DNA from: an uncultured Methanoregulaceae archaeon
GTDB lineage: Archaea; Halobacteriota; Methanomicrobia; Methanomicrobiales; Methanospirillaceae
Direction of reading: 5' to 3'
Length of the DNA: 64,000 bases
NCBI GenBank assembly: GCA_963717525.1
Contig: OY970343.1
Coordinates: 1 to 64,000 of the forward strand
Part shown: piece by piece, positions 26,783 through 52,809 of the stretch
Position numbering within the stretch: position 1 is the first letter of the stretch
How the letters are laid out: each line of letters opens with the position of its first letter
Notes under the pieces: generated by a model
The model's database searches: none
The model's input: only the letters and a program-made list of their open reading frames with translations
What the model was told of the DNA's origin: nothing
Translations under genes and position numbers: made by a program

Positions 26783-27691
26783 ATGACTATGGCAGCAGAA
26801 ACGGACAGTTTTGAAAAGTTTTTTGAGATGTACAAGCGTTTCTGCTACACGTTTGGCCGTTCCTTTGATCGCACCCCCAACCGCGATATTATCAAACTGA
26901 TTTACCAGGCCGATCTCGAAATGACGCCAGGAATGTTCACGTCCCTGTGGATCGTAACGACCATTCTTGTCGGCTTTGTGATGATAATGATCGCATCCAT
27001 CCTTTTCCTGCTCCCCCAAAGCCCCTTTGCGATACCCAATCCCGCACCCTTTATCCTGCTCTTCGCGCTGATCGGTTCTGCTGCGATTGCGATTGGCTTT
27101 CCTTTTTACCTGCAAAACCAGATCGAGAACAAGAAACGGGACATAGACACCCAGATTCCCTATGCCCTTGCATTCATGTCGATCCTTGCCAGTTCCGGTG
27201 CAACACCGCTGGATATTATCAGGAGGATTGCACGGGAAGAGTACGGACAGATCTCCAACGAGTTTCGCAAGGTACTGTTCAGGGTAGATGTCCTTGGAGA
27301 GGATGTGGTCACTGCGATGAACGGCCTGGTACAGAATACGCCATCTGACATGTTCCGGGATATCTGCATCGATATGACCAACATCATCTATGGTGGAGGC
27401 GGACTGAAATCCTATCTTGAGACCAAGTCAAAAGAGCTCATGGCCATCCGGCGCCAGACCTATAAGGAATTCGTGGAGTCCCTTGCCGTATTCGGCGAAG
27501 GTTACCTTGGAGGAGTGGTGATGACAATCACCCTCGCTGTGCTGGGTGTTGTTATCTCCGGTGCACTGGGCATCCAGCTGGGGCCGTTTTCCGCGCATGA
27601 TATGTTCAACTACCTGATCTACCTGCTGATCCCGCTCATCAACGTGGTATTCCTTCAGATGCTGGCTGTGAAATATTCGACAACTCCCTGA
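26783..27691 (+). CDS. Type IV pilus platform protein (T2SSF, TadB/TadC-like)
   Basis: IDTQIPYALAFMSILASSG, YGQISNEF, TPSDMFR. Confidence 0.92.
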   Translation: MTMAAETDSFEKFFEMYKRFCYTFGRSFDRTPNRDIIKLIYQADLEMTPGMFTSLWIVTTILVGFVMIMIASILFLLPQSPFAIPNPAPFILLFALIGSAAIAIGFPFYLQNQIENKKRDIDTQIPYALAFMSILASSGATPLDIIRRIAREEYGQISNEFRKVLFRVDVLGEDVVTAMNGLVQNTPSDMFRDICIDMTNIIYGGGGLKSYLETKSKELMAIRRQTYKEFVESLAVFGEGYLGGVVMTITLAVLGVVISGALGIQLGPFSAHDMFNYLIYLLIPLINVVFLQMLAVKYSTTP

Positions 27692-27697
27692 TCCGCT

Positions 27698-29065
27698 ATG
27701 CAAACACCCGCCAAGGACACCCCGGTTCATAAAAAGATGGACGAGCTCCACGAGATTATCGAGCGGATATGGATCAAGTACAACCCACCGCGGGAACTTT
27801 TCACCATTGCCATTCCGGTCGCGGTTGCACTCCTGGTTGTGCTCGCTGCATTTTTAATGGGATATACAATCCATACAACGGAAAAGCAGCAGGCTACAAC
27901 CACCAGTGCCAAAGAACAGGCGCTGCAGGCATACCTTGCGCAGGTGAATGCCGAGAACGGCAATGCCACCGGAACAGTCGCTTCCGCTATACCATCAGCA
28001 CCTGCCGCACCGACCATGGGGCTTGACGAGGTGATGGTCTTTGCCCTGATCATAGCCATCCTCCCGTACTCCATTGACATAACGCTCCAGAAACGGTCGA
28101 CCCGGAAAAAAGAGGAACTCTATACCGAGTTCCTGTTTAAGCTCTCTGAGCTGATGCGGGGGGGGCTCGATCCCATCAAGGCAGTAAAAGAACTCTCCAA
28201 GACCGATCTTGGCGTTCTCACCCCACATATCCGCGTCGCAGCGACCTCCATGACATTCGGGAAGTCGTTTGAGGAAGCGATGAAAGCGATGTCTGCTTCA
28301 CTCCATTCGGAACTGATCACGCGGTACACCATGCTCGTCGTCCAGGCCTCGTATTCAGGGGGATCGGTTGCCGATCTTATCCTCAAGGCATCCGAGGACA
28401 TGCGGAGTATCATCTCGATCGAGCGGGAGAAAGAGGGGAATCTTCACCAGTACGTAATGATCTTCTACTTTGCCCAGGCAATCATCATTTTTATCGTCTA
28501 TATTCTGACAACAAGCCTCCTCCCGTTCGTCCAGCAGCTGGGCGCCACGCAGATGTTTGGCAAAACGGATATCGGCGATATCGATTTTGCCCGGGGATTC
28601 TTCCATATGATCATCCTCAACTCCATATTCGGGGGCCTGATCATCGGGAAGATCAGCGAAGGCGAGGCGCGGTACGGGCTCAAGCACGTGGTTGTGCTCG
28701 TGGCCGTAGGTTACATTGCGTGTGCCCTCTTCATCCTTCCTCCGCCGGTCACACAGATCGGGCCAAAGGTCAATATTACGGTGGTATCTGGAGATCAACA
28801 GGAAGGAGTTCAATCTTTGCCGCTCGTAAATCCAATCGTTTTCCAACTTACAGACACTGCCGGTAATCCCGTGAATAGTACTTCTGTTACATTCAACATA
28901 GTGCCGGGAGGGTTGGTAAATCCGGTTTCAGATATCTCGAATAATAATGGCCAAGTCCAGACGAAAGTAATCTTGGGAAATGTTTCGGGAACCTACTTTA
29001 TAACAGCAACGGCAAATGGGAACTCTGCAAAGGCGACTGCGAACGCAGCATCCGGAGGAGGATAA
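27698..29065 (+). CDS. Type IV pilus platform protein (T2SSF) with C-terminal Ig-like domain
   Basis: FLFKLSELMRGG, GLIIGKISEG..GLKH; C-terminal VVSGDQQ..TDTAGNPV..TATA beta domain. Confidence 0.9.
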   Translation: MQTPAKDTPVHKKMDELHEIIERIWIKYNPPRELFTIAIPVAVALLVVLAAFLMGYTIHTTEKQQATTTSAKEQALQAYLAQVNAENGNATGTVASAIPSAPAAPTMGLDEVMVFALIIAILPYSIDITLQKRSTRKKEELYTEFLFKLSELMRGGLDPIKAVKELSKTDLGVLTPHIRVAATSMTFGKSFEEAMKAMSASLHSELITRYTMLVVQASYSGGSVADLILKASEDMRSIISIEREKEGNLHQYVMIFYFAQAIIIFIVYILTTSLLPFVQQLGATQMFGKTDIGDIDFARGFFHMIILNSIFGGLIIGKISEGEARYGLKHVVVLVAVGYIACALFILPPPVTQIGPKVNITVVSGDQQEGVQSLPLVNPIVFQLTDTAGNPVNSTSVTFNIVPGGLVNPVSDISNNNGQVQTKVILGNVSGTYFITATANGNSAKATANAASGGG

Positions 29066-29068: not shown

Positions 29069-29545
29069 TTGTTAAAACAGGCATATTATATTTTGTGTCT
29101 CCTTATTGGCATACTAGTATTTGTCAGTATTGCCGGCTGCGCAACATCCCTGCACCCACAGCTGAATTCGACGATTGAGAAATCTACGGATGCATTACCA
29201 GATCCTGAAACAGGTCTCCAGGAGTGGATGACTGCGATAAATGCCAAAAATATCAATCGTTTGTATACTCTTTCGCCTGATCAGATTCGGGAGCAGGTAA
29301 CCCTGGAACAATTCACCAAAGATAATACCGAAAATTACCTTCTCCAGCCAGGATATGTTTTTATTGGTTATACTATCCTTAACAAAACCGTTAATCAGAC
29401 AACAGCAACTATCACTGCACAATTGAATTTGCAGGTGTCAGCATCCCAGAATTTGAATCAAACGAAAGTATTTCCTGTAATCTATAAGTTTTTCCTGGTT
29501 TTTGAAGAGGGAGAATGGAAAATCTGGAACATTCCTCTTTCATAA
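29069..29545 (+). CDS. Putative lipoprotein (NTF2-like)
   Basis: IAGC lipobox-like; EEGEWKI ending; 3 bp after the platform gene. Confidence 0.65.
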   Translation: MLKQAYYILCLLIGILVFVSIAGCATSLHPQLNSTIEKSTDALPDPETGLQEWMTAINAKNINRLYTLSPDQIREQVTLEQFTKDNTENYLLQPGYVFIGYTILNKTVNQTTATITAQLNLQVSASQNLNQTKVFPVIYKFFLVFEEGEWKIWNIPLS

Positions 29546-29602: not shown

Positions 29603-30154
29603 TCAGACACCCTGCACAAAATGATGGCAGTTCGGGCAGACCCAGCCGACTGGTATCATCTCCCCGTTTTGTGCAGCAGAAAATGTCTGGATCATGGGGG
29701 TTTTGCACGGGCAGATCGGCCTGTTTGCGGCTGCCTGCTGTTCCATGAATGAGTCGAGCTTGCGTTTCTTGTACAGGGCACTCTCTATGCCGGCAAAAAG
29801 TTCCCGGGTGTTTATCGGCTTGACGAGATACCCACTCGCCTCGGTCTGGACCACGCGCCGGATTGTCTCATCATCGCTGAACGCGGTGAGGAAAATGATC
29901 GGCGTTTCGTACAGTCCTTTGATCTTGTAAGCGGCCTCAATCCCATCCATCTCTCCCTGGAGATGGATGTCCATGAGAATGACGTCCGGATACTGCTCTC
30001 CGGTAAGAGTGAGAGCCTCTTCGCCGCTCATAGCTATACCGACCACAACATACCCGATTCGCCTGAGTGTCTCCTCAAGGGTCATGGCAACAAGCCCTTC
30101 ATCTTCTACGATAAGGATCCTTTTTTCAGCAGGGTTTGCAGGATTTTTCATCAT
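29603..30154 (-). CDS. Response regulator receiver with C-terminal zinc ribbon
   Basis: IVEDE, ILMDI, FLTA, YLVKP; CPCK...CPNC. Confidence 0.88.
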   Translation of the reverse strand: MMKNPANPAEKRILIVEDEGLVAMTLEETLRRIGYVVVGIAMSGEEALTLTGEQYPDVILMDIHLQGEMDGIEAAYKIKGLYETPIIFLTAFSDDETIRRVVQTEASGYLVKPINTRELFAGIESALYKKRKLDSFMEQQAAANRPICPCKTPMIQTFSAAQNGEMIPVGWVCPNCHHFVQGV

Positions 30155-30244
30155 GGTTTTCGCTAGTATTATTTCGGCAGGAGACTATATTTAGTTGTCT
30201 TTAATATAGAGAGAAGACACAATATATTTATTCGAGGGGGCAAG

Positions 30245-31663
30245 ATGAGCGATCCGATCCCCACCTGTTTCCCGCTGGAGGGCGAGGTCAACCCGTTCGT
30301 GCAGATCCCCGAGGATCCCGGGCTTATGCGCGTTCTGATCCTTATCATAGCCGCCGCTACGATAGTTGTCGCTGCCCTCAGTCTGGCATATGGGATCGGG
30401 GATCTTTACCAGTACCTCTTTCTGCTGCCGATTGTGATAACGGCCTATTTCTTTCCCCGGTACGGGATCGCCACTTCTGCAGTCATGGGGCTCACGCTGG
30501 TTCTGCTCAATGTCGTCTTTTTAGGGGACAACCTGCATGTGCTCTCGCTTGCGTGCTTCACATTCGCAGTGTTTCTGGGAATTGGGGGGATCGTCACGAT
30601 GCTCTCGGAGAACATCTCCGGACTGAAAAAAAGGTACCAGGACATCTTTGCAATGTCCGAGGCGGGAATGATCATCTTTGACCGGGATACCGGCCACATT
30701 ACCGAGGCAAATCCCAGTTTCCTTAAACCATTGGGCTATGCCTCAACCCGATGTGGGATCCCCGCTTTCTGCAATCTTTTTGAACGCCCGGAGCAGTACC
30801 ACGAGCTGATCCGTGAGGTTATTGCAGGAGGAAGAGTTACCGACAGGAAATGCCTTCTGAAAGCATCGTCAGGGACCCTGCGGCAGTTCCAGATTTCAGC
30901 GTGTACGTTCTTCGGCCCGTTTATTCTCTGCACGTTCACGGACATCACCGAGCGTATACAGTACGAGGATACCCTGCGGCAGTCGCTGGCAGAAAAAGAG
31001 ATCCTGCTCAAGGAAGTGCACCACCGGGTTAAGAACAACATGCAGGTGATCATGAGCCTTCTCGAGCTGAATGCGCTTAAGGCAGAAAATGAGCGTGAAC
31101 GCTTCCAGTATGCCGAGATGCAGGGGAGGGTCATGACCATGGCCCTGATTCATGAGAAACTCTACCAGTCCCCGATCGCCGGTTCGATTAACGCTCAGGA
31201 GTATTTTTCAGATCTTTTAAAAAATATTGTTTCTGCTTCTGCGACGCCGGACGTACAATGTGTTGTCAAGGCATCGGGAATCTTTCTTGATATTGACCAG
31301 GCTATTCCCTGCGGGCTCATTATCAATGAGCTTGCAACCAATTCACTGAAATACGCATTCCGGGAAACAGCCGGGTCAGAGCTCCACCTGATTCTTGGAG
31401 CTGGCGGCGACGACGTTTGCACACTGGTATTTTTCGATAATGGTTCCGGCCTCCCCCTGTCGTACAAGATTGCCGATTCAGAAACCCTGGGGATCAGGCT
31501 GATCCATATGCTGGTGCGACAGCTTAAAGGGGAGATCATTATGACAAATCACGATGGCACTCACGTTCGCATACAATTCCCTCTCAACAACCGTGACCGT
31601 GAATTGCACTCCGTTGCCTGTGCCCAGATCGCAGAACAGACCACCATTTCCCGATGGGCGTGA
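30245..31663 (+). CDS. Membrane PAS histidine kinase (HisKA_2 type)
   Basis: TM helices, PAS, KEVHHRVKNNMQ, NELATNSLKYAF, DNGSG. Confidence 0.92.
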   Translation: MSDPIPTCFPLEGEVNPFVQIPEDPGLMRVLILIIAAATIVVAALSLAYGIGDLYQYLFLLPIVITAYFFPRYGIATSAVMGLTLVLLNVVFLGDNLHVLSLACFTFAVFLGIGGIVTMLSENISGLKKRYQDIFAMSEAGMIIFDRDTGHITEANPSFLKPLGYASTRCGIPAFCNLFERPEQYHELIREVIAGGRVTDRKCLLKASSGTLRQFQISACTFFGPFILCTFTDITERIQYEDTLRQSLAEKEILLKEVHHRVKNNMQVIMSLLELNALKAENERERFQYAEMQGRVMTMALIHEKLYQSPIAGSINAQEYFSDLLKNIVSASATPDVQCVVKASGIFLDIDQAIPCGLIINELATNSLKYAFRETAGSELHLILGAGGDDVCTLVFFDNGSGLPLSYKIADSETLGIRLIHMLVRQLKGEIIMTNHDGTHVRIQFPLNNRDRELHSVACAQIAEQTTISRWA

Positions 31664-31844
31664 TCATCCGGGATATCTAGGAATGATCCCTGACGTGTTA
31701 CTGAGGAGGCTTTGGCACTTTCACCAGCAATGACGCCATTCCTTCATACCAGAATTCTCCCCCATCCGGGGTTACAACCGGTTCAACTAAATATTACTAT
31801 AGAGTCTAAATAAGAAATGATGATATGATCTCAAAAAAATAGTA

Positions 31845-33641
31845 ATGCTCCCAGGTTTACCGATGAAAGTCCGCACACGTTCCCGCTTGATTCTTGCTGC
31901 AATGGCTTTTGTTTTTTTGATCGTCCTCAGTTTCATCACCCAGTTTATCATCCTCGATTCATTTCGGACAATAGAAAAACAGCAGATGACTGCAAACGTT
32001 GAGAGGGTACTTTCAAATCTCAATAATCAGGAAACGTCAGTTGCCGCCACATGCAGGGACTGGGCCGGCCGTGACGATACGTATGCTTTTGCAGGAGAGT
32101 CCGGTTCTCCGGGGGCTTCCGGCACCTTCAATCAGCCGCGTTTGCTGGGAACCCTTGACATCGATTACCTGCTCATCTACGATACCTCGGGAGACATGAT
32201 ATTTTCCCAAGGGGCCCTGAACGCAGACGGAATTCCGGAAGTTGTCCCGGCTCAGCTTGAGGAGATCATCAGCAACAGCATTATTCCGCCGGGTATGCCC
32301 ACCGGGGTATCAGGGCGTCATGGGGTATCGTTTCTCAATGGTGAGCCGGTCATTCTTGCCGGTTACTCTATCCGGGGAAGCAATCAATCGGCACCTTCGC
32401 GGGGCACCTTGGTGATGGTCCGGGCTCTGAACAGCCATAGGATTGGAGATATGGAAAGCGTTCTCCAGATTCCGGATTTTGCCCTGGTGCCAGCTTCACC
32501 GGTTACAGGTATCGATGGATACAGTGACACAGACATACAAAAAATGAGAAAAGGCGAGATCATAAGCGAACCGGTCAACAGCAGCCAGATGGGAGGTACG
32601 GCAATGATCACCGGCATTGAAGACAAGCCGACCTTCCTGATGCTCCAGGTGTTCACTGATCGTACGGTGTATACCGATGTACAAACGTCGATCCTGATCG
32701 TTGCGGCTTCGATTGTCCTCTTAAGTGCCGTTTTTATCATCGCGGTGCAGTTTTTATTGCAGCGATTTGTCCTCGGGCCACTCAGTGCCCTTGATGAGGA
32801 TATAAAAACCATCGGTGAGTCCGGGGATCTTTCCCGCCGCATCCCTGAAAAAGGGGACGAGGAGATCATATCCGTTACCCGCGCCTTAAACCAGATGCTC
32901 GCAGATCTTGAAGAAAAAAGGGCTGAACTCTTTGCCGCCCGCAGCGAACTTGCCAAGCGTAATCTGGACCTTGAGGAATTTAACCGGAAAGCAAACCTGT
33001 ATCTGGATATTTATCTTGATGTGATCACGTACGAGATACTGAATGCCATGATGGGCCTGAGAGGGTATGCGGAGTATCTCAAGGACACGGCTCGTGAAAA
33101 TGAAAAAAAATTCCTCAAAAAGATCATCGATCTGGCCCAGAAAAGCAGCAACGTGATCCGCAATATCGAGACGATCAGCCGCATTTACAAGATGCAACCC
33201 GGTGTTGTTGCCATCAATCTCGAAGAAATCGTAAAAAAAGAGATGGCTGCCCGCCAAAACGTTCATATCACACTTGAAGGATGCGACCGCATGGTACGTG
33301 CCAATGATATGCTCGGTGTCGTCTTTGATAACCTGTTTTCAAATAGTCTCAAGTTTGGCGGATCTGGAGTATCTATTAACGTCTCTGCCAGGGACGTTGG
33401 GGAAGGGACGCTTGAAATATCGGTCGCCGACAACGGGCCCGGGATCTCCGATGAGATGAAGCCGGGGGTCTTCGACCGGTTCGCCAAGGACACCAAAACC
33501 CGAAGCAGTTATGGCCTTGGGCTCCATATCGTCAAAATGCTGGTGGAAGGATATGGGGGAAAAGTATGGGCTGAAGATCGGATACCGGGAGATTCGTCAT
33601 CCGGCGTTGTGATACGCTTCACGCTGCGGCTGGCTGAATGA
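31845..33641 (+). CDS. CHASE4-HAMP sensor kinase-like protein with degenerate H-box
   Basis: DWAGRDDTY, HAMP, NLFSNS, DNGPG, GLGL; H-box reads ITYEILN. Confidence 0.85.
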   Translation: MLPGLPMKVRTRSRLILAAMAFVFLIVLSFITQFIILDSFRTIEKQQMTANVERVLSNLNNQETSVAATCRDWAGRDDTYAFAGESGSPGASGTFNQPRLLGTLDIDYLLIYDTSGDMIFSQGALNADGIPEVVPAQLEEIISNSIIPPGMPTGVSGRHGVSFLNGEPVILAGYSIRGSNQSAPSRGTLVMVRALNSHRIGDMESVLQIPDFALVPASPVTGIDGYSDTDIQKMRKGEIISEPVNSSQMGGTAMITGIEDKPTFLMLQVFTDRTVYTDVQTSILIVAASIVLLSAVFIIAVQFLLQRFVLGPLSALDEDIKTIGESGDLSRRIPEKGDEEIISVTRALNQMLADLEEKRAELFAARSELAKRNLDLEEFNRKANLYLDIYLDVITYEILNAMMGLRGYAEYLKDTARENEKKFLKKIIDLAQKSSNVIRNIETISRIYKMQPGVVAINLEEIVKKEMAARQNVHITLEGCDRMVRANDMLGVVFDNLFSNSLKFGGSGVSINVSARDVGEGTLEISVADNGPGISDEMKPGVFDRFAKDTKTRSSYGLGLHIVKMLVEGYGGKVWAEDRIPGDSSSGVVIRFTLRLAE

Positions 33642-33700: not shown

Positions 33701-34315
33701 TTATCCATGCCGCTCACGGGTATCGATCAGGAACCCCTCATCACCGATCGTGAAAGGCAGCATCTTTTCAGAAAGTAGGGTTCCCCGCATCTTGGGAATA
33801 TTGAGATAACGCTTGAGCTTGTCTCCCTCGGGAACGGTGGTGACCTGAATGACCCCGTCTGCCATCGCATGTAAAAGCGCCTCGTGCCGTTCGGGGAGAA
33901 CACCGCGATCCACAAGCAGGAGGAAAACGCGGCCGTTTTTTGCTGCAGTTATGATGCGGGAGATCCCCTCGCGGAGATCGGAGAGCGGTGTATCGAGGAA
34001 ATAGAGAGAAAACTGGTCAACGATCACCAGATCCCCGTTACCATGGAGGGTGAGAAGATCGAGGAGCGCTCCCGGGGTTGTCCCGTGTATCTCTTCAATA
34101 TGAAATCCCTTTGCGGGTAAAATTCTCAGGAGTTTCATCTCACTGCGGATATCGTCTGAGGGCCGGGGCGTGAGGTAGGAGACGTCCTTTCCGTCAGCTG
34201 CCGTTTCAGCGGCAATATACTGGGCATATACAGATTTGACAAGCCCCGTACCTTCTTCAATCAGGATCACGCTCTTTTCCGGAAAATTATCCATGCCATG
34301 AACGGGTGCCATCAC
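33701..34315 (-). CDS. Degenerate RecA/KaiC-superfamily (RAD55/ArlH-like) protein
   Basis: VILIEEGTGLVKS, VIVDQFS, MADGVI, IPKMRG, PFTI. Confidence 0.75.
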   Translation of the reverse strand: MMAPVHGMDNFPEKSVILIEEGTGLVKSVYAQYIAAETAADGKDVSYLTPRPSDDIRSEMKLLRILPAKGFHIEEIHGTTPGALLDLLTLHGNGDLVIVDQFSLYFLDTPLSDLREGISRIITAAKNGRVFLLLVDRGVLPERHEALLHAMADGVIQVTTVPEGDKLKRYLNIPKMRGTLLSEKMLPFTIGDEGFLIDTRERHG

Positions 34316-34508: not shown

Positions 34509-35015
34509 GTGTATCCCCCACAGAGATCCACTCCGAACAGGGCGAGTATTTGTAATGCAACCATCATGCAGAAGACCATCCCAGCCCTTTTCAGGCGCAT
34601 CTATGATACGCCGGCATGCGTTGCCATTATCCCGTCATTTGCGGTAATTATCGATTATGCCCTCACCTTTTTTCTCGCGGGAAATACCGGAATGATCCTT
34701 CAGTGGGAGGCAAGCCCTCTCGTACGGTTTGCCGTGGCGCATAACAGTATGGCGATCTATCTACTGGCCATCGTTGTATTCTACTATGTCGCTGCGTACG
34801 CGGTCCTCCACATCCTTCGGCCCACCGCCTATTACCGGTATGGCGTAGGACTGGTGTTACTGGTGAGCCTGACACATGTACTTGGAGGTCTGTCATGGCA
34901 GTTCAAAACTGCAGGGTATTCCAACAGTATTGTGGCCCTCTCATTTCTCTCCATTATTATTGCGATCTGCCTGTTTGGATATACCATCTTCCGGCAGGTT
35001 CATTCCTCAACATGA
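34509..35015 (+). CDS. Membrane protein (DUF5658-like)
   Basis: IDYALTF...WEASPLV; four TM helices. Confidence 0.6.
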   Translation: MYPPQRSTPNRASICNATIMQKTIPALFRRIYDTPACVAIIPSFAVIIDYALTFFLAGNTGMILQWEASPLVRFAVAHNSMAIYLLAIVVFYYVAAYAVLHILRPTAYYRYGVGLVLLVSLTHVLGGLSWQFKTAGYSNSIVALSFLSIIIAICLFGYTIFRQVHSST

Positions 35016-39740: not shown

Positions 39741-39866
39741 CTGGGTCGATACTCTGATTGGTGAATTGACATCTGTGGGGGATGAATGAACTTCACCGCA
39801 AGAACTCCGTGGCAAATCCATTAGTCTCTACAAATTTTTCAAAAATCCCATCCACGAACACCAAAG

Positions 39867-41034: not shown

Positions 41035-41048
41035 TTTTTTTCTTTTTT
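41035..41048 (+). terminator. T-rich archaeal terminator between pstS and pstC
   Basis: TTTTTTTCTTTTTT right after the pstS stop. Confidence 0.6.
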
Positions 41049-41051
41049 ACA

Positions 41052-41972: not shown

Positions 41973-44640
41973 ACCTCCGGAATCTCAAAGGGACAATCAT
42001 GATGGCAATCTGCGGAGCTGCCGCGCTCTTTGCCGCAGCCATGCTTCTCTATATCCTCGTGGTTATCTTCCTGAAAGGAGTGGCATCCCTGAACCCGCAT
42101 TTCATCCTGTTCTCTGAGATCAATACCGGGTTGGGGCTCGGGACCGGGGTCGGGAACGCCATTGCCGGCACTATTCTTCTCGCGGTCATATCCACTATCC
42201 TTGCAATCCCCTTGGGAGTGGGGACTGCAATCTATCTCAGGAAATATGCTTCCGACAACCAGTTAACCCGGTTCCTGCGGCTGATGATCGAGGTTCTCTC
42301 AGGCACCCCTTCGATCGTACTGGGGATTTTCGGCGTCGCCGTCCTTGTTATCTATCTCAAGCCCATTACCGGGGGAGAATCCCTCATCGCAGGAGCCATT
42401 GCACTTGGCGTCCTGATCATCCCGGTGATCGAACGCTCAACAGAGGAGGCACTTTCGCGCGTGCCCTGCGAACTGGAAGAGGGCAGCTATGCACTCGGCG
42501 CAACCAAATGGCTAACAGTCCGGAATATCGTCATTCCTTATGCCCTTTCGGGTATCATCGTCGGGGCCATCCTTGGATTCGGCAGGGCTGCGGAAGAATC
42601 GGCCGTCGTTCTCCTGACCGCGGGATATTCCCAGTACATGCCGCAATTCAGGATCGCAGTCAACCCGAACTTTTTACTCGGGATTAAGATATATCCGCTC
42701 AATGATCTCGTCGGATCACTACCGGTATTCCTGTACACATCCTATGAAAATTCCAATGTCTTTCCCGTATCCTCCATTTTTGCTGCCGGCTTTATCCTCA
42801 TCGTCATCGTATTGTTCATCAATCTCTCGGCAAAGGCCATCCTTTTCTATGCCACAGCAAAGACACATGGGCATCAAGGTGACCTTCTGTCTTCGTTTTG
42901 CGGATCTATTTCAGACCGGTTCCTCGGGAAACAACCCAAAGCATTACCTTCATATTCCGATGTAATAGATCCTGCACCCCCGGATGAAAAAAACACGAAA
43001 AAAGAAGATCCTGTTAGTGCCTCAATGCCTCCTCAAATTCGCCCGGTAGACCTTTCGTGGATAGACACAGATCCGTTAATTGATGAACCATCTTCGGGGG
43101 AGACAGAAACTCCCGAGCCCGCCCCACCTGCTGCCGAACCCCCAAAACCAGCCCCCAGGCCAACAAGAATAACGATCCGCTCGGTTGGGACCGGCATTGT
43201 ACGGCTCATTAACGCAATCCGCGAAAAAGTTCGCATGGTGGTACATGACAACCTGCAAAAGAAAACACCTGTAGATGCAGCTAAGGTTCGTGGCACTGCG
43301 GATCGTGCTGGATCTCTTCGGAAGACACAGTCGTTCAGTCCCTGGATGATAATAGGCCCAGTCCGCTCCTTCCTTCTTACGTTTGCCCCATTCGCACTGG
43401 TCGCAGTAATCCTGCTGGTTCTCACCATCATGCTGCCCCCCCTCTCACCAGTTGGATCGAATGGGCCGGCCTGCTGACCGTTCCCATCATGGCCCTCATC
43501 CTGTGTTTGATCGGGACGGTAAGTGCCCTTTTTCTGGTGCGGAACAGTACGCTCTTCCTGCTTCGGCACCAGAAGGGCCGAATGGGGAACCGGCGTGCCG
43601 AATTCGCCGGGATCGCGGTGGGATTCTGCATGGTTCTTATCGGGGCATTCATCTTTTCCGCCCATATCTTTTCACCCGTTCCATCACTCCAGTCCCCGGG
43701 TTCAGAAGCACCCGCAGAAAATGGAATATTCAGTTACTTCACACCGTCAGGAAACGGTGGGATATCTGCAATCATGTCATTGATACAGGACAACAGCCTG
43801 TTAGGCTTCCTCCACGGATCAGGATCTGCAGCCGCCAACTCCACAGCCTCATCCAACCGGGGCGCACAACTGGCAGCGTTTCTGGCTTCAGAAGAAACAC
43901 CGGCCGAAGTAACCCCCCAGAGCACCCTGGCAGCACTCCAGCCCTCTCCTGCTCCGTCTTCCTCTGCCCAAGCCATCTCCTCAGTCCCTCCCTCCGTTCC
44001 GGTCAAAAACGCACTCGATCTCGGCGAGTCCTATTGGTACGGCGATAACAGCCGCCCATGCCTTGCCACCGTCTACAATGTAACCGTCCTCCCGTTCTAT
44101 TTCTACTGGGATATGGACTGGAACCGGTTCGTTCAGGTAACACCGGTTTCGAGCGGCGACACGTTCCTTGTTGTTTTCATCCGCATCGAAGACACCGGAA
44201 ATATGAGTGCCATCGTGCCGCCGGCAACCAGTTTTGTCGTCACCTATAACGGCCAAACCTATTCCAATGAGCCGTATTTCGATCAGTCAGTCCTTGACCC
44301 GGACGAAATTACTTATTATACCGCAAATTTCAACGCCCTGCCCTACCAGTGGATCCGGGAGATCGGGCAGCAGAAGCGGGATTATGCCTTCCTGACCGGC
44401 TACAATGTCTTCGGGCAGAACCAGACCGTGATCTCTAACTATACCAACAGCGCAAACGCCCCCCCGACACCGCCCGATACGAATGGCCAGGGGTATTTCA
44501 TCAAGCCCGGGCGCAGCAACGCCATCGACGGCTACCTTATCTACGAAGTCCCCGATGCTGTTGCAGCGGATCTCCGGGACACGTATGTCCAGGTCTCCTT
44601 CAACAGTTTCAGCGCGACGCAATGGAGGCTGGGAAAATGA
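41969..44640 (+). CDS. pstA: Phosphate ABC permease PstA with long C-terminal extension (one frameshift at ~43463)
   Basis: LSGTPSIVLG, EEGSYALGA, GRAAEESA; one extra G in AATGGGCCGGC joins ORFs 41969..43477 and 43489..44640. Confidence 0.8.
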
Positions 44641-44936: not shown

Positions 44937-46984
44937 ATGAAAATAAAAATTCCCTTCGACAGGAAAAGGATCCGCTTACCCCGTATCAAAAAACAGGCCC
45001 GTATCCCTCTTGTTATCGGAGCGATTATCATCCTCTTCGCACTCGGTACGTATTTCCATCTCCTGCCGAGTATCGGGAGTCTTGCGCACCTGTTCGAACC
45101 CAAGGTTACCACAGATCCGCTTCAGTCCCTGGGAGATGCAGCTACGCCTCTCAGCGCAGACCTTGCAAAACCCCTTATCGCTGACTTTCTGGCTTCTCCC
45201 GGGTACCAGTCCGATCCGCTCTCCGTGCAGTTCTTCGATATGAGCCGGGTACTCCGGGGACATGGCACTGGGATTTTGGCGACAACGTAACTTCGGATCT
45301 CCAGAATCCGGTTCATGAGTACGCGGGCCCGGACATATATAATGCCACCCTGACCGTAAGCCGGGGAGATGGCACCCAAAAAACAATAACCGCATATGAT
45401 GTGCTGGATACCCGGCAGGCCGCTGAATCTCAGATGCTGGTCGATACCATCCGCACCGGAAGCATAAAAAAAGGTTCGTTTTTATCCTTTGTATCGACAG
45501 CCAGCAACTCTTCTGTGACCGTGAACGGTGCCCGGGTGCAGTTGCCGGCAGGATCGCTGGTGAAGATCCGTGCCAATGCGGACACCACCGGGACCCTCTC
45601 CCTGCGCGGCAGCAACATTCTGGGCTGTAGTCTTGCCGATGCTACCCTCTTTATGAACGGCACACAGGCTGCCCGGGGCATTTTTTCCGACTGCTTCATC
45701 CCGTCAGTACAGAGTTATCATGCAAACCTCACTTTTGCTATCGAGCCCACCTACGGGGAGGTCCGGGAGATCTTGGTAAACGGCAACGAAGTCCTTGCCG
45801 GGCCACAGAATTCCTACATCGTCGTTTCTGAGGATTCGCAAAATCCCGGAAAGGATCTGACAGTTGTTGCAGTCCCCGGATACTATGAGGGGAGTGCGTC
45901 CCGTTACTCCATATCGCCCGCATTGATCGCCAGTTTCGTCACTGCTTCTTCCTTAGAAGGCAGCGCCCCCCTCAATGTCTCGTTTCTGGATCGCTCGGCC
46001 GGCTCACCGGATTCATGGTTATGGGATTTCGGGGATGGCACCAGTTCCCAGGAACAGAATCCTACACACCTTTATGGCTCCCCGGGATCCTACGATGTCT
46101 CTCTGACCGTGAAAAACGAGGACCAGACCGATAGCACCGCACTCCAGAACGCGGTAATTGTCACGCCTCCCCGGGTCGTCGCTAACTTTACTGCTAGTCC
46201 GCTCACCGGCCCGGAGCCCCTCACCGTCAGGTTTACCGATCAATCCACCGGGTTCCCGACATCGTGGAACTGGACCTTCCAGGAAACCTCGTGGAATATG
46301 ACCTTCTATAACACCGGCAGCACTATTTATGACACCTCTACAAACCAGAATCCTACAGAAACCTTCACAGATCCTGGCACCTATGACGTCTGGTTGACGG
46401 TCAACAACGTCTACGGCAGCAGCGACATAATCAGGCCAGGGTATGTCGTCGTTACTTCACCCTACAATATTTCGACCGATGATATCCTTGTCAAGACCGG
46501 AAAACCCGGCTATATCGAACAGGATTCAAGCGTCCAGTTTATCGTGAGCAACACACCGGCGGCCATCACCATCAACGGGACCTACTATGATCTGCCGAAA
46601 GGTGCGGTTGTACGGATCGTAGCCGGGAGCGACCAGCAAGGCGATATCACCATCGACAGCAACCGGATCCTCAAATTTGCCTTCCCGGACATGGCAGTCT
46701 ACATGAACGGTAATCTCCTTGCCGGTGGGAGGATCGACAGCATCTATATCCCGTACATGATGCAGTTCCAGACCGGCCTGACCTATTATTTCTCGCCCAA
46801 TTCGGCCCAGACATATGAGGCCATCAATGGGCAGCAGTACCTTTCCGATTTGGACAATGCCTGGATCCGTATCTACGACCTAGGTATAAACAAACAGGGA
46901 ACACTCTCCCTGATTTCAGGCAAAAACACAACCTATATCGAAGGGGCCGATAACCAGACGGTTCAGGACTGGATTCTCCAGTGA
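44937..46984 (+). CDS. Membrane-anchored surface protein with three PKD domains (frameshifts ~45250-45380)
   Basis: N-terminal TM; WDFGD / QNP.H / YxVxLTV PKD motifs. Confidence 0.82.
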
Positions 46985-47214: not shown

Positions 47215-47853
47215 TCACTGGCGCTGCTGCAGGAGATGCGCCATTGCCGTAATATTTGAGAGCGCGTCATCCCCATCTTCAAGAGAGGATAATCCCAAGG
47301 CCTTCGCATCCATGGCGGCAGTGCGCAGCGAGTCATCCCGGAAATCCGGATCATCTACGGACAGATATCCGGTGAGATCCCGGTTATAATCAACGAAGTG
47401 CTGTTGTGCGTTGCTCATATCGATGGAATAGATTTTCATCTCCTGTGCCAGCAGGCCGGTGAGCTGGAGGGAGTCCGGATCATTCCCGAACGTAAGGGAT
47501 GAGGTGGCGGATGAAAACGTATCGGTTGCAGATCCCAGTACGGCACTAGCAGCACCCCATTGGCCGATTGCCTGCTGGTCAGCTGCCACATCTCGCCGCA
47601 GTGCAACTGGATCGGAAGAGGGGGCGGCAGTGTCGCGGTTATAAGCATCAACGGTATTTCCGATTTGGGTGAGAGCGGAACTGACCTGGCTGTAATAGGT
47701 ACCCTGCTGATCTGCCCAGGAATTATAGTCCTGGATGACTACTGTTGTATTATGGGTATCACTCATCCGGGGAGTGGTACACCCGGCGGCTAACAGTGTG
47801 CACCCGACCAGAAAAAGGAGCAGGAAAAACCCACTGGATCGTTCCATCATCAC
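47215..47853 (-). CDS. Putative helical lipoprotein
   Basis: LLAAGC signal. Confidence 0.7.
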   Translation of the reverse strand: MMMERSSGFFLLLFLVGCTLLAAGCTTPRMSDTHNTTVVIQDYNSWADQQGTYYSQVSSALTQIGNTVDAYNRDTAAPSSDPVALRRDVAADQQAIGQWGAASAVLGSATDTFSSATSSLTFGNDPDSLQLTGLLAQEMKIYSIDMSNAQQHFVDYNRDLTGYLSVDDPDFRDDSLRTAAMDAKALGLSSLEDGDDALSNITAMAHLLQQRQ

Positions 47854-47987: not shown

Positions 47988-49319
47988 ATGTATAAACTGG
48001 GAACGGTTATCTGTCTCTTCGTCGTTATGCTGGTCTGGGCATGCGGCTGTACTTCCGTTCCCGCGTCAGGTACCGCACAGGCGGGACCGTCTGTGGCGAC
48101 ACCCACGCTGCCGGCGATGTATGTTGCCGGGGAAACGACACTCACGGCAGGGAGTGCCACGATCACATCGACGCCGATACCGGCGAACGCAACAGCCGCA
48201 AATATCGTTGGCGCACAAGTGAACACAACCCTCACGGAAGTTACGATAGCCTGCACGGGGCAAACCTGTACCAGCGGCACAACCAATAGTACCATATCCG
48301 GTTCCAGCACTACCACGGTGAGTGCCCCGGTGAGCGCCATTGCCGCCAACGTGACCATGGCATATGTCAAACAAAACCCGGACGTTGCAATCCAGTTTAC
48401 CGACTCCTCTTCAAACACCCCTCCGTATTCATGGATGTGGAGCTGGCGGCCGGCGGCAAACCTGACCTACGAGAGTGACCCGAGCATCGTTCTCGTCTTT
48501 AACCAGTATGGGAACTACATGGTAACCCGGAGTGTTTCAAACAGCGTGGGAACCTCAAGTTCATCAACAAATGTCTCCGTCTGTCCCCTTGTAGCCTCCT
48601 TTACCACAAACCAGACCACCGGCCCGGTACCACTCTCCGTCAGGTTCACCGACACTTCGACCGATCAGCCCGTCTCTTGGCTCTGGAACTTCGGCGATGG
48701 GAGTGCCTCGACCTTACAGAACCCGGTGCATACGTTTACCGTATCGGGTACGTTTACCGTGAGACTTGATGCAACAAACAGCCTGGGCTCCTGCTGGAAT
48801 ACGACCGGGATCTCGGTATCATCACTGGCAGCATCTTTTACCCAGAATCAGACTACCGGCCTTGTCCCGCTCGCTGTCCAGTTCACCGACACTTCGACCG
48901 ATCAGCCCGTCTCCTGGCTCTGGAACTTCGGTGATGGGAGTGCCTCGACCTTACAGAACCCGGTGCACACATATACGACTGCAGGTGTATACCTGGTCAA
49001 CCTCAGCGCATCCAACGGGTATGACGGCATGATGAGTGCGCAGCCAGTAAAGATCACGATCTGGTCCCTTCCCACCGCTTCTTTCACAGCAAGCCCGGTA
49101 ACCGGGATGCCGGGAACCTCCGTGCTTTTCAGTGACCAGAGCACCGGCTTTCCCTCCCCAGCATTCTGGTATTGGGACTTTGGCGACGGGTACACCAGCA
49201 GCCAGCAGAATCCCTCGCACCAGTATGTTAATGCCGGGACATACAATGTCAGCCATTCAGCAACAAATGCGCAGGGCATCACGTGGCTGAACAAGACCGC
49301 TTACATCACCATATCATGA
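47988..49319 (+). CDS. Exported protein with four PKD domains
   Basis: Signal ending ACGC; repeated W(N/D)FGDG..QNPxH; near-identical duplication at ~48645-48730 and ~48882-48967. Confidence 0.9.
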   Translation: MYKLGTVICLFVVMLVWACGCTSVPASGTAQAGPSVATPTLPAMYVAGETTLTAGSATITSTPIPANATAANIVGAQVNTTLTEVTIACTGQTCTSGTTNSTISGSSTTTVSAPVSAIAANVTMAYVKQNPDVAIQFTDSSSNTPPYSWMWSWRPAANLTYESDPSIVLVFNQYGNYMVTRSVSNSVGTSSSSTNVSVCPLVASFTTNQTTGPVPLSVRFTDTSTDQPVSWLWNFGDGSASTLQNPVHTFTVSGTFTVRLDATNSLGSCWNTTGISVSSLAASFTQNQTTGLVPLAVQFTDTSTDQPVSWLWNFGDGSASTLQNPVHTYTTAGVYLVNLSASNGYDGMMSAQPVKITIWSLPTASFTASPVTGMPGTSVLFSDQSTGFPSPAFWYWDFGDGYTSSQQNPSHQYVNAGTYNVSHSATNAQGITWLNKTAYITIS

Positions 49320-51490
49320 CACCCAAACCCTTGTCAGGCCGGCTTTCATCATTGTTCAGCACCGGAGGAGAGCCAGACGCTTCCCGACCGGACACTGATG
49401 CAGATGATACGCTATCCTCTGACGGCGTGCAAAAAGAAGATCACGGAACCGACGAACCTGACCTTGGAGACAAAGGGATTGGCCGCCAGCCGGAAAACCG
49501 GCGACCCGGTTCACGGATACAGAAGTTTTTCCTGTACTTCATTGAACCGGAACTGAAGCCGGAACAGCTACCTGATGTCTCCCGTACACAGGTAAAGAAA
49601 CCACGGGAAAAAAAGCCTTCCGTTCCTGTCAAAGAGAGGATCAGGGAACAGCTGGCCTCCCTGAGAAAATTGGGCCTGAAAATATCCCTCTATTTCATAG
49701 AACCCGTTGAAGAGGAGACAACGGGCATACAGGCCGAAGAGGTGCAGGCACTTCCGGAAACTGCAGCTGAAACCCTCCCTTCCATACCGGATCAGGCCAA
49801 CCTTGCGCTGTCTGTTACCGATGTGGTTCAGGCACCTGACAAACAGGTTCCCCCTCCCTCATTCATGCAGAGAATCCGGTCACTTTTGGCGTCCCCGGAA
49901 CAGAAGGAGATCCAGACGCTCGATTTCGATCCGGGTGTCCTTGACACCCCCTCCCTTGAAGGATCGCTGCGCGATGTCAATATCACCTACCTGATCGATC
50001 CCCCTTACCAATACGTCCATATCGAGTACAACAAAAAAGAGGGGTCTTTGATATATGATGTAGTCGAGCCGCAGCTCTCCGAGGATGAGAAGGTCGCTCT
50101 CGATATTATCGAGCGGGCCTTTGAGAAACTGGTGAGCACCAACCTCGAAATTATTGAAGGTGATCGGCGGACTGAATACCTCCGGGAACGGTTCTACTCA
50201 CTGGTCAACATCTTCGGGCTCAAACTCTCGGAACACCAGAAAGAGAGGATGTTTTTTACCCTCAAAAGGCAGTATCTCGGCTACAGCCGCATCGACACCC
50301 TGATGAAGGACAAGTATATCGAGGATATCAGCTGCAACGGTTCGGATATCTTCCTGTACGTCCAGCACCGTATCTATGGCTCAATCCGTACCAATGTGAA
50401 ATTCGGGGAGGTCGAGCTCAACAACTTCGTCCTGAAGCTGGCACAAGTCGGCGGCAGGCATATCTCGCTCCTCCAGCCCATCCGTGACGTTTCGCTGCCG
50501 GACGGGAGCCGGGGGAACCTGACCCTCGGCGGAGAGGTAACCAGAAAAGGATCGACATTTACCATCCGTAAATTCCGTGCAAACCCCATCTCGCCCATCG
50601 AAATGATGGACTACCACTCTGTCGATGCGATGGAGCTTGCATACCTATGGATCCTGATGGAATACAAGCGCTCGATCCTCGTCTCAGGGGGGACGGCGAC
50701 CGGGAAGACCACGTTTTTAAACGTGTTGTGCAGTTTCATTCCTCCCGAGTACAAGATCGTCTCCATCGAGGACACAGCAGAACTTAACCTAATGCACCCT
50801 AACTGGATTCAGTCCATCACCCGGGCCGGGTTCGGTAGTACCAGCGGTGGAGAGTCTGTATCTGGGTTGAGTGGTGTGTCGGCAAAAACCCCCGGGGATA
50901 TCTCGCTCTACGACCTGCTCGTCGCGGCACTGCGACAGCGCCCCGAGTTCATCATCGTAGGGGAGGTGCGGGGGAGCGAAGCGTTTACGCTCTTCCAGGC
51001 AATTGCCGTAGGGCATGCGGCTCTTGGGACTATCCACGCCGGTTCCATGGACGAGCTTCTCGCCCGCGTGGAGTCTAACCCTATGAATGTCCCACGAAGC
51101 CTCTTCTCCAACCTCGATGTGGTGATCTTTCCCATGCATATCAAGAAAGGGGAGCGGAGCATGCGGCGTTTGTCAAATATCATCGAGATGCTGGAACTCG
51201 ACCGGGATTCAGGAGATCTTATCACGAATACGGCTTTCAAATGGCTCCCTGATGTCGATGAGTTCCAGTTCCAGGGCCGGAGTTTCCTCTTTGACAAGAT
51301 CCGGGACACCCACGGGGTAAGTAAAGATCTCCTCAACCAGGAGCTCAAAGACCGGACAGCATTCCTGCGTGGCCTGCAGAAAGCAGGGATCCGGGAGTAT
51401 AATGCGGTGACTGAACAGATCCGGGCATATTACCGGGATAAACCGGCTGTGATGAAGCAGGTCGAGGGTTCATCGGAAATTGTAGGGTAG
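49316..51490 (+). CDS. Type II/IV secretion (pilus assembly) ATPase, ArlI/TadA-like
   Basis: GGTATGKT Walker A, SIEDTAEL, IIVGEVRG, GH...TIHA; ATGA overlap with the PKD gene. Confidence 0.95.
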   Translation: MTPKPLSGRLSSLFSTGGEPDASRPDTDADDTLSSDGVQKEDHGTDEPDLGDKGIGRQPENRRPGSRIQKFFLYFIEPELKPEQLPDVSRTQVKKPREKKPSVPVKERIREQLASLRKLGLKISLYFIEPVEEETTGIQAEEVQALPETAAETLPSIPDQANLALSVTDVVQAPDKQVPPPSFMQRIRSLLASPEQKEIQTLDFDPGVLDTPSLEGSLRDVNITYLIDPPYQYVHIEYNKKEGSLIYDVVEPQLSEDEKVALDIIERAFEKLVSTNLEIIEGDRRTEYLRERFYSLVNIFGLKLSEHQKERMFFTLKRQYLGYSRIDTLMKDKYIEDISCNGSDIFLYVQHRIYGSIRTNVKFGEVELNNFVLKLAQVGGRHISLLQPIRDVSLPDGSRGNLTLGGEVTRKGSTFTIRKFRANPISPIEMMDYHSVDAMELAYLWILMEYKRSILVSGGTATGKTTFLNVLCSFIPPEYKIVSIEDTAELNLMHPNWIQSITRAGFGSTSGGESVSGLSGVSAKTPGDISLYDLLVAALRQRPEFIIVGEVRGSEAFTLFQAIAVGHAALGTIHAGSMDELLARVESNPMNVPRSLFSNLDVVIFPMHIKKGERSMRRLSNIIEMLELDRDSGDLITNTAFKWLPDVDEFQFQGRSFLFDKIRDTHGVSKDLLNQELKDRTAFLRGLQKAGIREYNAVTEQIRAYYRDKPAVMKQVEGSSEIVG

Positions 51491-51644
51491 TGCCCTTTTT
51501 TGGGACTCGTTTTCAATTTTTTCTCGCCTTGCTGAAAGAACGGTTCATGCTCTCAAAAAGGAGAGAAGAAGTTTTGCCCTTCTTTTCCCGTGTGGCTTGA
51601 CCGATACGCAACAGGTGCAATCCCTTATGTACGATCTTAATTAA

Positions 51645-52809
51645 TTAGGAGGTATTCGCAACCGCCAGCTCGATGGGAGATAATTGCCCTGAGACGATCT
51701 TAATCGTGCCGTTACCGCTCATGACCTCTACACTGTCGTTTCCATTGGGATCTGTCATTCCCTCATACTTACTCAGAGTCAAATCCCCGAACTGGTTGTA
51801 CTCCACGATATAGTTCACGGATAAGTTGGATACGCCAATACCGTGAATATCTTTGATGGTGACATTCACCCACCCCGGTACAACAGGAACGGCATACAAA
51901 TTGGCCGGGGGAAAACTGCGGATCGGCTGGAATACTGATATAATTTGATGTTGCCATCATACCTGTGTTGTCGGTGACCGTGAGGTTCACGCAGAACGGC
52001 CCTATACTTGGAGGGTTATACCGGGTAACTTTCCCTGTTGAATAATTTGCGGGGTTTGTAAGGGTGCCGCCACAGTTACCTCCTGCAGGAGACGCATCCA
52101 CGATGCTCCAGTTCCATAGATTAATGGTGTTATCCGAGGTGGATTGCGAACCATCCAGTACCAGCACATCGCGTTGCAATTCTCCGAGATTTTCTGTAGC
52201 GATACTGGACTGGATAACAGGGTTAGGGGATTTATAGGTTTGTTCGAAGAAGTTATTGAGTGATGTCATGATCATGATCTTGATCTGAGCATTGGTGCCG
52301 ATGAACAATGGGGAATTTGGAAAGCCATTGGTAAAATTGATCTGAATTTCCTGACTCTGGGTTCCGGGGATGTCCAGGTTGAAGGTACCCAGAGAGGATT
52401 GGTTATACGTTTGTTGTTGCGGTTGGCCATTGAGTGTTGCATTGATCACGGTAATATTACTGACATATTGGGCGTTGCTTGATCCGGAGCTTGATACGGC
52501 AATGGCGACAATATCAACATCGTCAGTATTCAGGTTCACCAGGTGAAGAGTAACCGAACTCCAGTTTCCCGAATTTGTAATGTTATACGGGGTCTGGTTC
52601 CAGACGGTAGGATCGTTTTGGAAACTCACGCTGGAGAACTGGACACTCTCGGCTTTTACCGCCGCGAGATGTGATTGCTGAGTCATCTCGGCTTTCTGCA
52701 TCTGCGAGACCATGAGAGCAAGGGCGGCAGCGGCAGTCACTGTGATCAGGATCAGGAGGAGGGTCCCGATGATAACAGAAACACCCTGATCATTGTGCGG
52801 CCGGGTCAT
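51645..52809 (-). CDS. Large type IV pilin with PKD-like and Ig-like domains (frameshift ~51905)
   Basis: NDQG|VSVIIGTLLLILITVTAAAAL; LDGSQS..WNW..LTVTDN; frame break in a C-run. Confidence 0.85.

Follow-up and report, generated by a model that had tools for sequence, protein, structure and literature searches.

Can a nutrient-binding protein be the main subunit of a type IV pilus? Sulfolobus has been known for two decades to possess binding proteins that carry pilin-type signals, and the question is raised by a locus of an uncultured Methanoregulaceae archaeon. We analyzed a stretch of 64,000 nucleotides (the window), which makes up the opening 64 kb of a 2.29-Mb genome (one contig, 87% complete). 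In it, a gene for the phosphate-binding protein PstS with a class III, pilin-type signal peptide (pilin-PstS) lies with the permease genes pstC and pstA among genes for a type IV filament assembly ATPase, two TadC platform proteins, and a second class III pilin (Table 1), a gene set that we call the module. The initial annotation of this DNA had proposed a machine dedicated to a PstS filament. We have good confidence that this is a dedicated pilin-PstS machine that acts in phosphate acquisition; that PstS itself forms the main subunit of a phosphate-scavenging type IV filament is an even call.

Pilin-PstS joins a pilin-like N terminus to a phosphate-binding domain

The pilin-PstS protein begins with a short basic leader and an A/VSP site, followed by a 30-residue hydrophobic helix, a low-confidence linker, and the binding domain. 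In the structure model (predicted local distance difference test score, 88), the binding domain mostly scored above 90 and the linker low, and the top Foldseek matches were all PstS. The modeled subunit thus consists of helix, linker, and binding domain and has no pilin globular domain. The class III match is weak (E 0.03 with PF07790 and 0.004 with TIGR02537, the latter at 18.7 bits versus a cut-off of 20). Alanine or glycine is found at position -1 of the cleavage site in all 43 pilin-PstS copies, and none of 114 pilin-PstS sequences has a cysteine within 45 residues after the site. The strict FlaFind rule asks for lysine or arginine at position -2, from which the methionine present here departs. 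Genome-wide scans with PF07790 and TIGR02537 bore out the earlier observation that PstS and the second pilin carry the only two class III N termini in the window.

Pilin-PstS is 27% identical to the host's lipoprotein PstS and lies far under the TIGR02136 cut-off (42.7 versus 206.6). A protein search with it returned 372 relatives, and the helix columns were ~95% invariant among the 116 that were aligned. Over 43 genome copies, mean identity reached 82% for the helix, as compared to 62% for the ATPase, 58% for TadC1, 55% for PstC, and 40% for the binding domain. In a matched-genome control, lipoprotein PstS showed the reverse pattern, with 36% for the signal and 62% for the domain (n = 17), against 86% for the helix and 44% for the domain of pilin-PstS (n = 16). 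Pilins typically have a helix that is more conserved than the surrounding enzymes, as is the case for pilin-PstS; such conservation would not be expected of a plain membrane anchor. The phosphate-ligand motifs are retained (GSTT-like and R...SGT, each in 41 of 43 copies).

Codon usage sets pilin-PstS apart from the machine. By bias toward six seed genes, it ranks 11th of 1,763 open reading frames (ORFs), amid genes for methanogenesis, S-layer-like proteins, and ATP synthase; the ranks are 53-82% for the machine genes and 10.7% for canonical PstS. A simpler codon index placed pilin-PstS above the machine genes in 36 of 42 genomes and above canonical PstS in 21 of 24. This bias suggests bulk synthesis.

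Several variants of the protein were also seen. A second class III PstS paralogue is present in G541 (L183), G668 (L270), and G569 (L126), either in the locus or alone beside phoU. In G540 (L125), the class III binding protein that accompanies the module machine has its phosphate motifs replaced, and apparent Mo/W ATP-binding cassette (ABC) transporter genes lie nearby; the machine there may have been re-targeted to another oxyanion. A transmembrane (TM)-anchored sister family of the binding domain adjoins histidine kinase and response regulator genes in many Methanomicrobiales (L269, L271-L276; L268, L101) and is possibly an extracellular phosphate sensor for a two-component system.

The assembly machine co-occurs with pilin-PstS

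We examined whether the machine usually occurs without pilin-PstS in a sample of 401 Methanomicrobiales genomes (thresholds of E ≤ 1e-15 for PstS and E ≤ 1e-35 for TadC1). PstS matches were found in 41 of them and were of the pilin type in 30, where a contig edge truncates one copy at the 5' end, one is partial, and two are frameshifted. Eleven weak matches were excluded from this count: the seven inspected are TM-anchored, lack the pilin motif, and lie beside histidine kinases; the other four (G002, G008, G097, and G107) were left out as weak matches. TadC1 orthologues were present in 36 of the 401 genomes, including all 30 with pilin-PstS, and five of the six other carriers are contig-cut or incomplete. 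Three of these (G086, G325, and G380) are fragmented or incomplete, and in G250 and G061 the module ATPase is present and the contigs end just upstream of it. The sixth, G029 (99% complete; L081-L082), lacks both the ATPase and pstSCA, which went together, and its second pilin is truncated, with tadC1, tadC2, and the genes for the KaiC-like and 4-TM proteins retained; it reads as a decaying module. A phylum sample of 401 genomes, searched with the same TadC1 threshold, gave 29 carriers. In each of the 21 not already counted, the locus encodes a class III binding protein, with pstC/pstA adjoining in 19. Both samples thus support the proposed dedication.

The gene order in Methanosarcinaceae, including M. 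acetivorans (published table), is pstS-pstC-pstA-ATPase-tadC-tadC. In family f7, this order is followed by the KaiC-like gene on the opposite strand and the pilin, usually with phoU. The initial annotation had suggested examining synteny in other Methanomicrobiales. The core of the module recurs across the 57 genome regions fetched, some of them cut by contig ends: TadC1 was found in 57, TadC2 in 56, the KaiC-like protein in 52, the ATPase in 50, the second pilin in 47, the 4-TM protein in 45, and PhoU in 35. The two PKD surface proteins were found in 18 and 16 regions and the two lipoproteins in 16 and 14. Because they are present in only 14-18 of the 57 regions, these proteins, formerly counted as parts of the kit, are better regarded as extras, mainly of this genus.

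The module ATPases (45 rows) form one clade apart from the host's four other type IV pilus ATPases (Shimodaira-Hasegawa-like approximate likelihood ratio test support, 98) in a quick tree that has long branches, only those four ATPases as outgroup, and no published reference sequences. A placement in clade 2 is suggested by the syntenic M. acetivorans ATPase, which a published table lists as Clade_2.

Two further core proteins would belong to the machine. In all 49 copies of the KaiC-like protein listed, the Walker A motif is not intact, and the protein is probably an adaptor. The model of the second pilin, built on its G167 orthologue, has a 46-residue helix and three β-sandwich domains, for which Foldseek returned only generic FN3/Ig-like matches with template modeling scores of ~0.3 or less. 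The long helix, the domain arrangement, and an ordinary codon bias are consistent with the minor subunit envisaged for it at the outset, and we propose this role. The machine is distinct from an archaellum: the family models were not reached (ArlI, 373.7 versus 550; ArlJ, 76 versus 550; ArlH, 36.5 versus 215), the Walker A motif of the KaiC/ArlH-like protein is dead, and the host's archaellum genes lie at ~730-737 kb.

The prepilin peptidase had been assigned to the host. This holds here, where the window contains no such gene and the single Peptidase_A24 match genome-wide is at 233.9 kb, but is not general, as a peptidase gene lies within the locus in M. acetivorans, G707, and G569. The host gene (~232,950-234,140; L006:951-2140) is split into two ORFs, probably by an assembly indel.

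The module extends beyond methanogens

A profile search with cluster representatives yielded 274 proteins at E ≤ 1e-30, and the class III motif was present in 88 of the 134 newly listed ones. Scanning metagenomes with 12 distant proteins gave 80 loci, 65 of them with class III PstS, which the search patterns favor. Among the 35 class III PstS loci of at least 5 kb, 27 contain an ATPase or TadC and five contain PstC/A; the machine was also found in four of five long loci whose N terminus was missed by the motif. Cluster names in these loci point to Thermoplasmata (three loci), Nitrososphaerales (one), and ANME-2c (one). Judged by gene content, the conserved core consists of pilin-PstS, the ATPase, two TadC proteins, the second pilin, the KaiC-like protein, and PhoU. 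PstC/PstA appear to lie outside it, because only five of the 35 long metagenome loci have them while 27 have the machine; the private permease thus reads as an addition on the methanogen side.

pstSCA and the machine appear to have separate histories

Module PstC and PstA retain the EAA loops for coupling as well as the Arg-x-x-x-Glu phosphate site, as in E. coli. The site reads R-A-M-G-E-T-M in PstC and is a conserved RAAEESA variant in PstA. Only in this genus was PstA seen as a fusion with further TM helices plus an extracellular domain (window 43489-44640); this C-terminal domain had no Pfam match, and the Atlas leads, under 0.9, were only DUF5027/DUF4352-like. No pstB was found within the element, the host copy lying in the canonical operon, and none between pstA and the next gene in any fetched region examined. 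Because most carriers have two pstC and one pstB, and pstB is present elsewhere in 53 of 56 genomes, PstB is most likely borrowed from the canonical operon. An extra pstB-phoU pair adjoins the module in G229, G283, and G288.

Within the genus (12 genomes), pairwise identity of the binding domain follows that of PstC (rho 0.77) and not that of TadC1 or the ATPase (0.02). TadC1 and the ATPase are correlated (rho 0.86) although pstSCA lies between them, while PstC and the ATPase are not (rho 0.03). In trees of 15 genomes, the PstS domain and PstC hold a five-genome clade (support 100) that is rejected by the TadC1 and ATPase data; conversely, a six-genome clade of TadC1 and the ATPase is rejected by the PstS domain and PstC (approximately unbiased test, p < 1e-9 in all four tests). 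The simplest reading of these sequences is that pstSCA has been swapped as a cassette independently of the machine, the invariant helix keeping any PstS compatible with the machine and the binding domain having to match the permease.

The pilin-PstS and canonical pstS promoters share a repeated motif

Triple clusters of CTATAT (either strand) within 80 bases occur at only two places in the genome, upstream of both pilin genes. Across 48 module pstS promoters, CTATAT was the top-enriched hexamer, with 123 occurrences versus 15.6 in shuffles. It was found 65 times versus 16.4 in 19 canonical pstS promoters, 60 versus 16.5 upstream of the second pilin, and 34 versus 8.9 upstream of TadC1. We consider the repeat common to module and canonical pst promoters a candidate phosphate-response box. 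The island phoU, 97% identical to the host phoU, carries a copy of the host's divergent promoter.

At the inferred transcription start, the predicted pstS leader hairpin has a GGTGA stem that is identical in 26 of 46 pstS leaders; an Rfam search of the leader gave no match. The hairpin also has an inner stem and a GA-rich bulge. The ribosome-binding site, 70 bases downstream, is complementary to its 3' arm, and the two could pair when the whole leader is folded, so the hairpin may serve to stabilize the transcript or to switch translation.

The machine is catalogued, and its link to phosphate appears new

The closest known system, as a functional precedent, is the sugar bindosome of Sulfolobus. 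The Bas system (Saccharolobus/Sulfolobus solfataricus: BasE, BasF, and BasABC with GlcS, AraS, and TreS; PMC3047682, PMC2910488) shares with the module an ABC binding protein that bears a class III signal peptide. It differs in handling sugars, where the module would handle phosphate with one binding protein per machine in the same locus, and in having one BasF and three small pilins, BasABC, where the module has two TadC proteins and one 388-aa pilin; moreover, the module has its own PstC/PstA without PstB and is mobile. The Bas family models were not reached (NF053672, 194.5 bits versus 1000; NF053673, 30 versus 1300), and three small BasABC-type pilins were not found in the element, whose single other class III gene encodes 388 aa.

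The machine itself has been catalogued. Makarova, Koonin, and Albers (2016, PMC4858521) list, for M. acetivorans, M. psychrophilus, M. petrolearius, and M. boonei, a clade 2 euryarchaeal type IV pilus locus whose pilin is arCOG09549, and the present module is this locus by gene content and order. The M. acetivorans rows comprise pstS (FlaFind yes), pstC, pstA, the ATPase, two tadC, a KaiC-like gene, the pilin, a surface protein, a peptidase, a phosphatase, and phoU; those of Methanolobus psychrophilus likewise read pstS-pstC-pstA-ATPase-tadC-tadC, with KaiC-like, pilin, and phoU genes. These four methanogens may overlap the sampled genomes and were not added to our counts. The table leaves PstS outside the type IV pilus proteins and the word "phosphate" is absent from the main text, so the link to PstS is not drawn there.

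Sivabalasarma and Albers (2026, PMC13705601) proposed that class III binding proteins functionalize type IV filament (T4F) machines for scavenging, as widespread archaeal bindosomes. The main text contains neither "phosphate" nor "PstS" and leaves the linking of binding proteins to specific T4F loci to be validated. Canonical PstSCAB-PhoU (PMC12976172) shares the PstS fold and ligand motifs, the PstC/PstA coupling loops, and the phosphate site; it has a lipoprotein signal and pstB in the operon, whereas the module has a pilin helix and no pstB, and the host keeps the canonical system as well. In Pseudomonas aeruginosa, low-phosphate appendages rich in PstS/DING proteins depend on a machine of the T4F superfamily, Hxc type II secretion (PMC2242829). 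PstS is secreted cargo there, whereas the helix fused to PstS here could make it a subunit; we draw the likeness as an analogy. For M. mazei, published work reports induction of canonical pst only (10.1101/689885). Our literature searches, which most subscription papers lay beyond, returned no description of pilin-PstS with a dedicated machine. The link of the machine to phosphate and PstS appears new relative to the literature found.

The survey of 2026 treats the assembly state and machine partner of class III binding proteins outside Sulfolobales as an open question (PMC13705601). The genetically tractable M. acetivorans has the locus, in which binding protein, machine, permease, and regulator are paired one to one, so whether a nutrient-binding protein can be a pilin becomes directly testable. 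If the filament is real, methanogens, ANME, and soil archaea would have a new way to capture nutrients where phosphorus is scarce, and the candidate CTATAT box would give a handle on the little-studied archaeal phosphate regulon.

A phosphate-gathering filament is preferred over its alternatives

The reading we prefer, at even odds, is a phosphate-scavenging type IV filament with PstS as its main subunit. Its boldest form, with a probability of roughly 0.4, is an ancient archaeal pilus class with a phosphate-binding major pilin. Hundreds of PstS domains would then be strung along a long and possibly dynamic filament, which would collect phosphate beyond the S-layer and supply it to a matched permease; the system would be under CTATAT control, spread on integrative elements, and diversified by pstSCA cassette swaps behind the invariant helix. 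For the filament's length taken by itself, our support is tentative and stops short of even odds. We infer cleavage, polymerization, length, induction, and hand-over as follows. Upon phosphate limitation, pilin-PstS would be made in very large amounts, and the host prepilin peptidase would cleave it, as its class III motif suggests. The module's own ATPase and two TadC proteins would then polymerize it via the invariant N-terminal helix. The three-domain pilin would act as a minor subunit or as a primer of assembly, and the KaiC-like protein, whose site is dead, as an adaptor. Binding domains at the surface would capture phosphate. In methanogens, it would be passed to the matched module PstC/PstA, with PstB borrowed from the canonical pst operon; in lineages without module PstCA, the canonical transporter would take it.

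A number of points weigh against this interpretation. All the evidence is computational: it comprises gene content and co-occurrence, the pattern of conservation, the fold, intact motifs, co-evolution of the cassette, and mobility. The genomes are related, so that the counts are not independent. In a reverse search, two of 27 genomes with an N-terminal match, both with a class III-like PstS, had no detected module-type ATPase; both are fragmented (G452, 96% complete in 100 contigs; G556, 87% in 220 contigs). The CTATAT motif was first picked from two promoters of the window, unrelated flanking genes also carry 94 copies versus 42.9 in shuffles (2.2-fold), and the host's canonical pstS promoter has only degenerate copies, the box being weak there in this genus. 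The clades for the approximately unbiased tests were picked after inspecting pairwise identities, and G167, G226, and G380 gave no pstB match. Canonical binding proteins are also abundant, so codon bias and the U-tract behind pstS are no proof of a polymer. Finally, ATPase/TadC modules can share pilin sets (PMC4858521), and the only studied precedent, the Sulfolobus bindosome, yields 400-600 kDa complexes tied to the S-layer and apparently forms no classical filament (PMC3047682).

In the first alternative, the same dedicated machine with the same phosphate role would hold PstS within the envelope or just across it, by building a short pseudopilus or a cluster associated with the S-layer (a "phosphate bindosome"). 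Co-occurrence and conservation fit it equally well, the subunit has only helix, linker, and binding domain in place of a pilin globular domain, and a 40-kDa two-lobed domain would dock on PstC/PstA, as co-evolution implies, more easily near the membrane. However, extreme helix conservation and a codon bias level with that of methanogenesis and S-layer genes are expected of a bulk polymer subunit, the small BasABC-type pilins for a separate scaffold are missing, and the module persists without its own PstCA in other lineages. We regard a short structure as plausible but less likely than a filament.

It is improbable that the module makes a phosphate-regulated adhesion or sensing pilus, whose PstS would bind phosphate-bearing minerals or cell surfaces while PstCA and PhoU report occupancy more than import. 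The permease conserves its coupling loops and phosphate-site residues as in working transporters, the extra pstB-phoU pairs of three genomes adjoin the module, and the PKD genes are not core. These points outweigh, in our view, the lack of its own pstB, the tightly linked PhoU, the fast-evolving exposed domain, the PKD/Ig surface proteins of this genus, the RAAEESA variant conserved in module PstA, the sister family beside histidine kinases, and the PstS-rich adhesive appendages described in Pseudomonas (PMC2242829).

We give very little credence to the possibility that pilin-PstS and the machine are mere co-travellers on a phosphate-regulated island, with the helix a plain anchor and the pili built from PilA pilins encoded elsewhere. 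The host does have at least nine other Pilin_N genes above cut-off, ATPase/TadC modules can use pilins in trans (PMC4858521), class III binding proteins also occur in genomes without a T4F locus (PMC13705601), and G452 and G556 are possible orphans. Yet the linkage is found in several families, and in lineages named Thermoplasmata and Nitrososphaerales, with differing gene orders; in G029 the ATPase disappeared along with pstSCA; and conservation twice that of the attached domain would not be expected in a mere anchor.

Least credible of all is that the pilus ATPase, placed where pstB normally sits, energizes PstC/PstA directly or by filament cycling: pstS-pstC-pstA-ATPase are contiguous, with a pstA/ATPase overlap in M. 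acetivorans (PMC4858521), and carriers mostly have two pstC and one pstB, but the EAA loops are intact, co-evolution of PstC with the ATPase is absent within the genus, the machine occurs without PstCA, and pstB is available in nearly all genomes.

The module lies on an integrated element

The module sits on a 42.7-kb integrated element with tRNA-Thr(CGT) as its target, and G+C content drops from ~60% to ~50% between 17 and 56 kb of the window. In the relative G226 (L148), DNA matching window 13513-14922 directly adjoins the tRNA; because of this empty site, the 42.7 kb between represents the inserted element. G226 carries the module at another place, adjoining a different integrase. The host's canonical lipoprotein pstSCAB-phoU lies at 226-231.5 kb. 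By PstS protein, the closest named relatives are Methanoregulaceae metagenome-assembled genomes (72-89% identity), with identical gene order.

The genes listed in the initial annotation (two TadC, ATPase, second pilin, PKD and lipobox proteins, and pstSCA) were all located where it placed them, and family matches agree. Its statement that archaellin and ArlF/G are lacking stands too, with no match to these families among the 42 window ORFs scanned. It omitted three conserved-core genes, which encode the KaiC/ArlH-like, 4-TM, and PhoU proteins. We rejected the possibility that pstA, the first PKD gene, and the second pilin are real pseudogenes: four of four read-based assemblies restore the frames by adding 4, 1, and 2 bases at 43463, 45246, and 51906, respectively, although two of the four underlying runs may be the source of the present DNA. 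Two weak joints in run X11, with sides of 20-30 letters, were left out of this comparison. The corrected lengths (Table 1) agree with those of relatives.

Table 1. Positions of module, element, and regulatory features in the window.
Feature	Position	Strand	Basis and remarks
Left att-like repeat, left element border	14948..14963	+	16 bp identical to tRNA-Thr(CGT) 3' end
AbrB-PhoU phosphate regulator, core-associated	23529..24563	-	97% identical to host copy beside canonical pstS; 35/57 regions
Low-molecular-weight phosphatase/ArsC-like protein	24725..25225	+	Read from copy of host pstS/phoU divergent promoter; also in M. acetivorans locus
TadC1 platform protein, core, clade marker	26783..27691	+	PF00482 above cut-off
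TadC2 platform protein with C-terminal Ig-like extension, core	27698..29065	+	PF00482 above cut-off; 56/57 regions
Lipobox protein 1, accessory	29069..29545	+	Lipobox read from sequence; 16/57 regions
Response regulator and two histidine kinases, accessory, close relatives only	29603..33641	.	Domain scan
KaiC/ArlH-like protein, core	33701..34312	-	Degenerate Walker A; 52/57 regions
Small 4-TM membrane protein, core	34566..35015	+	arCOG09548 by position; 45/57 regions
Promoter with repeated CTATAT/ATATAG, candidate phosphate-response box, and TATA box	39690..39738	+	Motif counts
Predicted 5' leader hairpin (GGTGAA...TTCACC) at inferred transcription start	39760..39797	+	Fold; leader comparison
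Pilin-PstS, proposed major subunit	39879..41015	+	Class III signal peptide, pilin helix (~residues 14-45), linker, phosphate-binding domain
U-tract in the pstS-pstC gap, may act as a partial terminator	41036..41049	+	Sequence; putative function
PstC permease	41052..41972	+	TIGR02138 276.8 bits, cut-off 196.45
PstA fusion, 891 aa after correction at 43463	41969..44640	+	TIGR00974 246.8 bits, cut-off 193.45
Multi-PKD surface protein 1, 682 aa after correction at 45246, accessory	44937..46984	+	18/57 regions
Lipobox protein 2, accessory	47215..47850	-	Lipobox from sequence; 14/57 regions
Multi-PKD surface protein 2, accessory	47988..49319	+	Stop overlaps ATPase start; 16/57 regions
Type IV filament assembly ATPase, core	49316..51490	+	PF00437 and PF23989 above cut-off; Walker A present
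Second class III pilin, 388 aa after correction at 51906, core	51645..52809	-	TIGR02537 above cut-off; arCOG09549 by position
Three ATATAG/CTATAT sites upstream of second pilin	52878..52899	-	Motif search
Tyrosine integrase of element	56282..57505	-	PF00589; adjoins tRNA-Thr(CGT)
tRNA-Thr(CGT), integration target	57602..57673	-	Empty site in G226

The Ig-like extension on TadC2 is unusual for a platform protein and much longer in G405; its match to Big_1 is weak (E 3e-6, below cut-off). In close relatives, a SixA-like phosphatase, a 238-aa protein, a glycosyltransferase-like protein, and exonuclease III accompany the module (window 18678-19172, 20492-22339, 37487-38260), and these may be further phosphate-starvation genes. 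A G/C-rich repeat element lies at window 38320-38450, where read assemblies show loose contig ends; similar text recurs in host ORFs, which suggests a small dispersed repeat.

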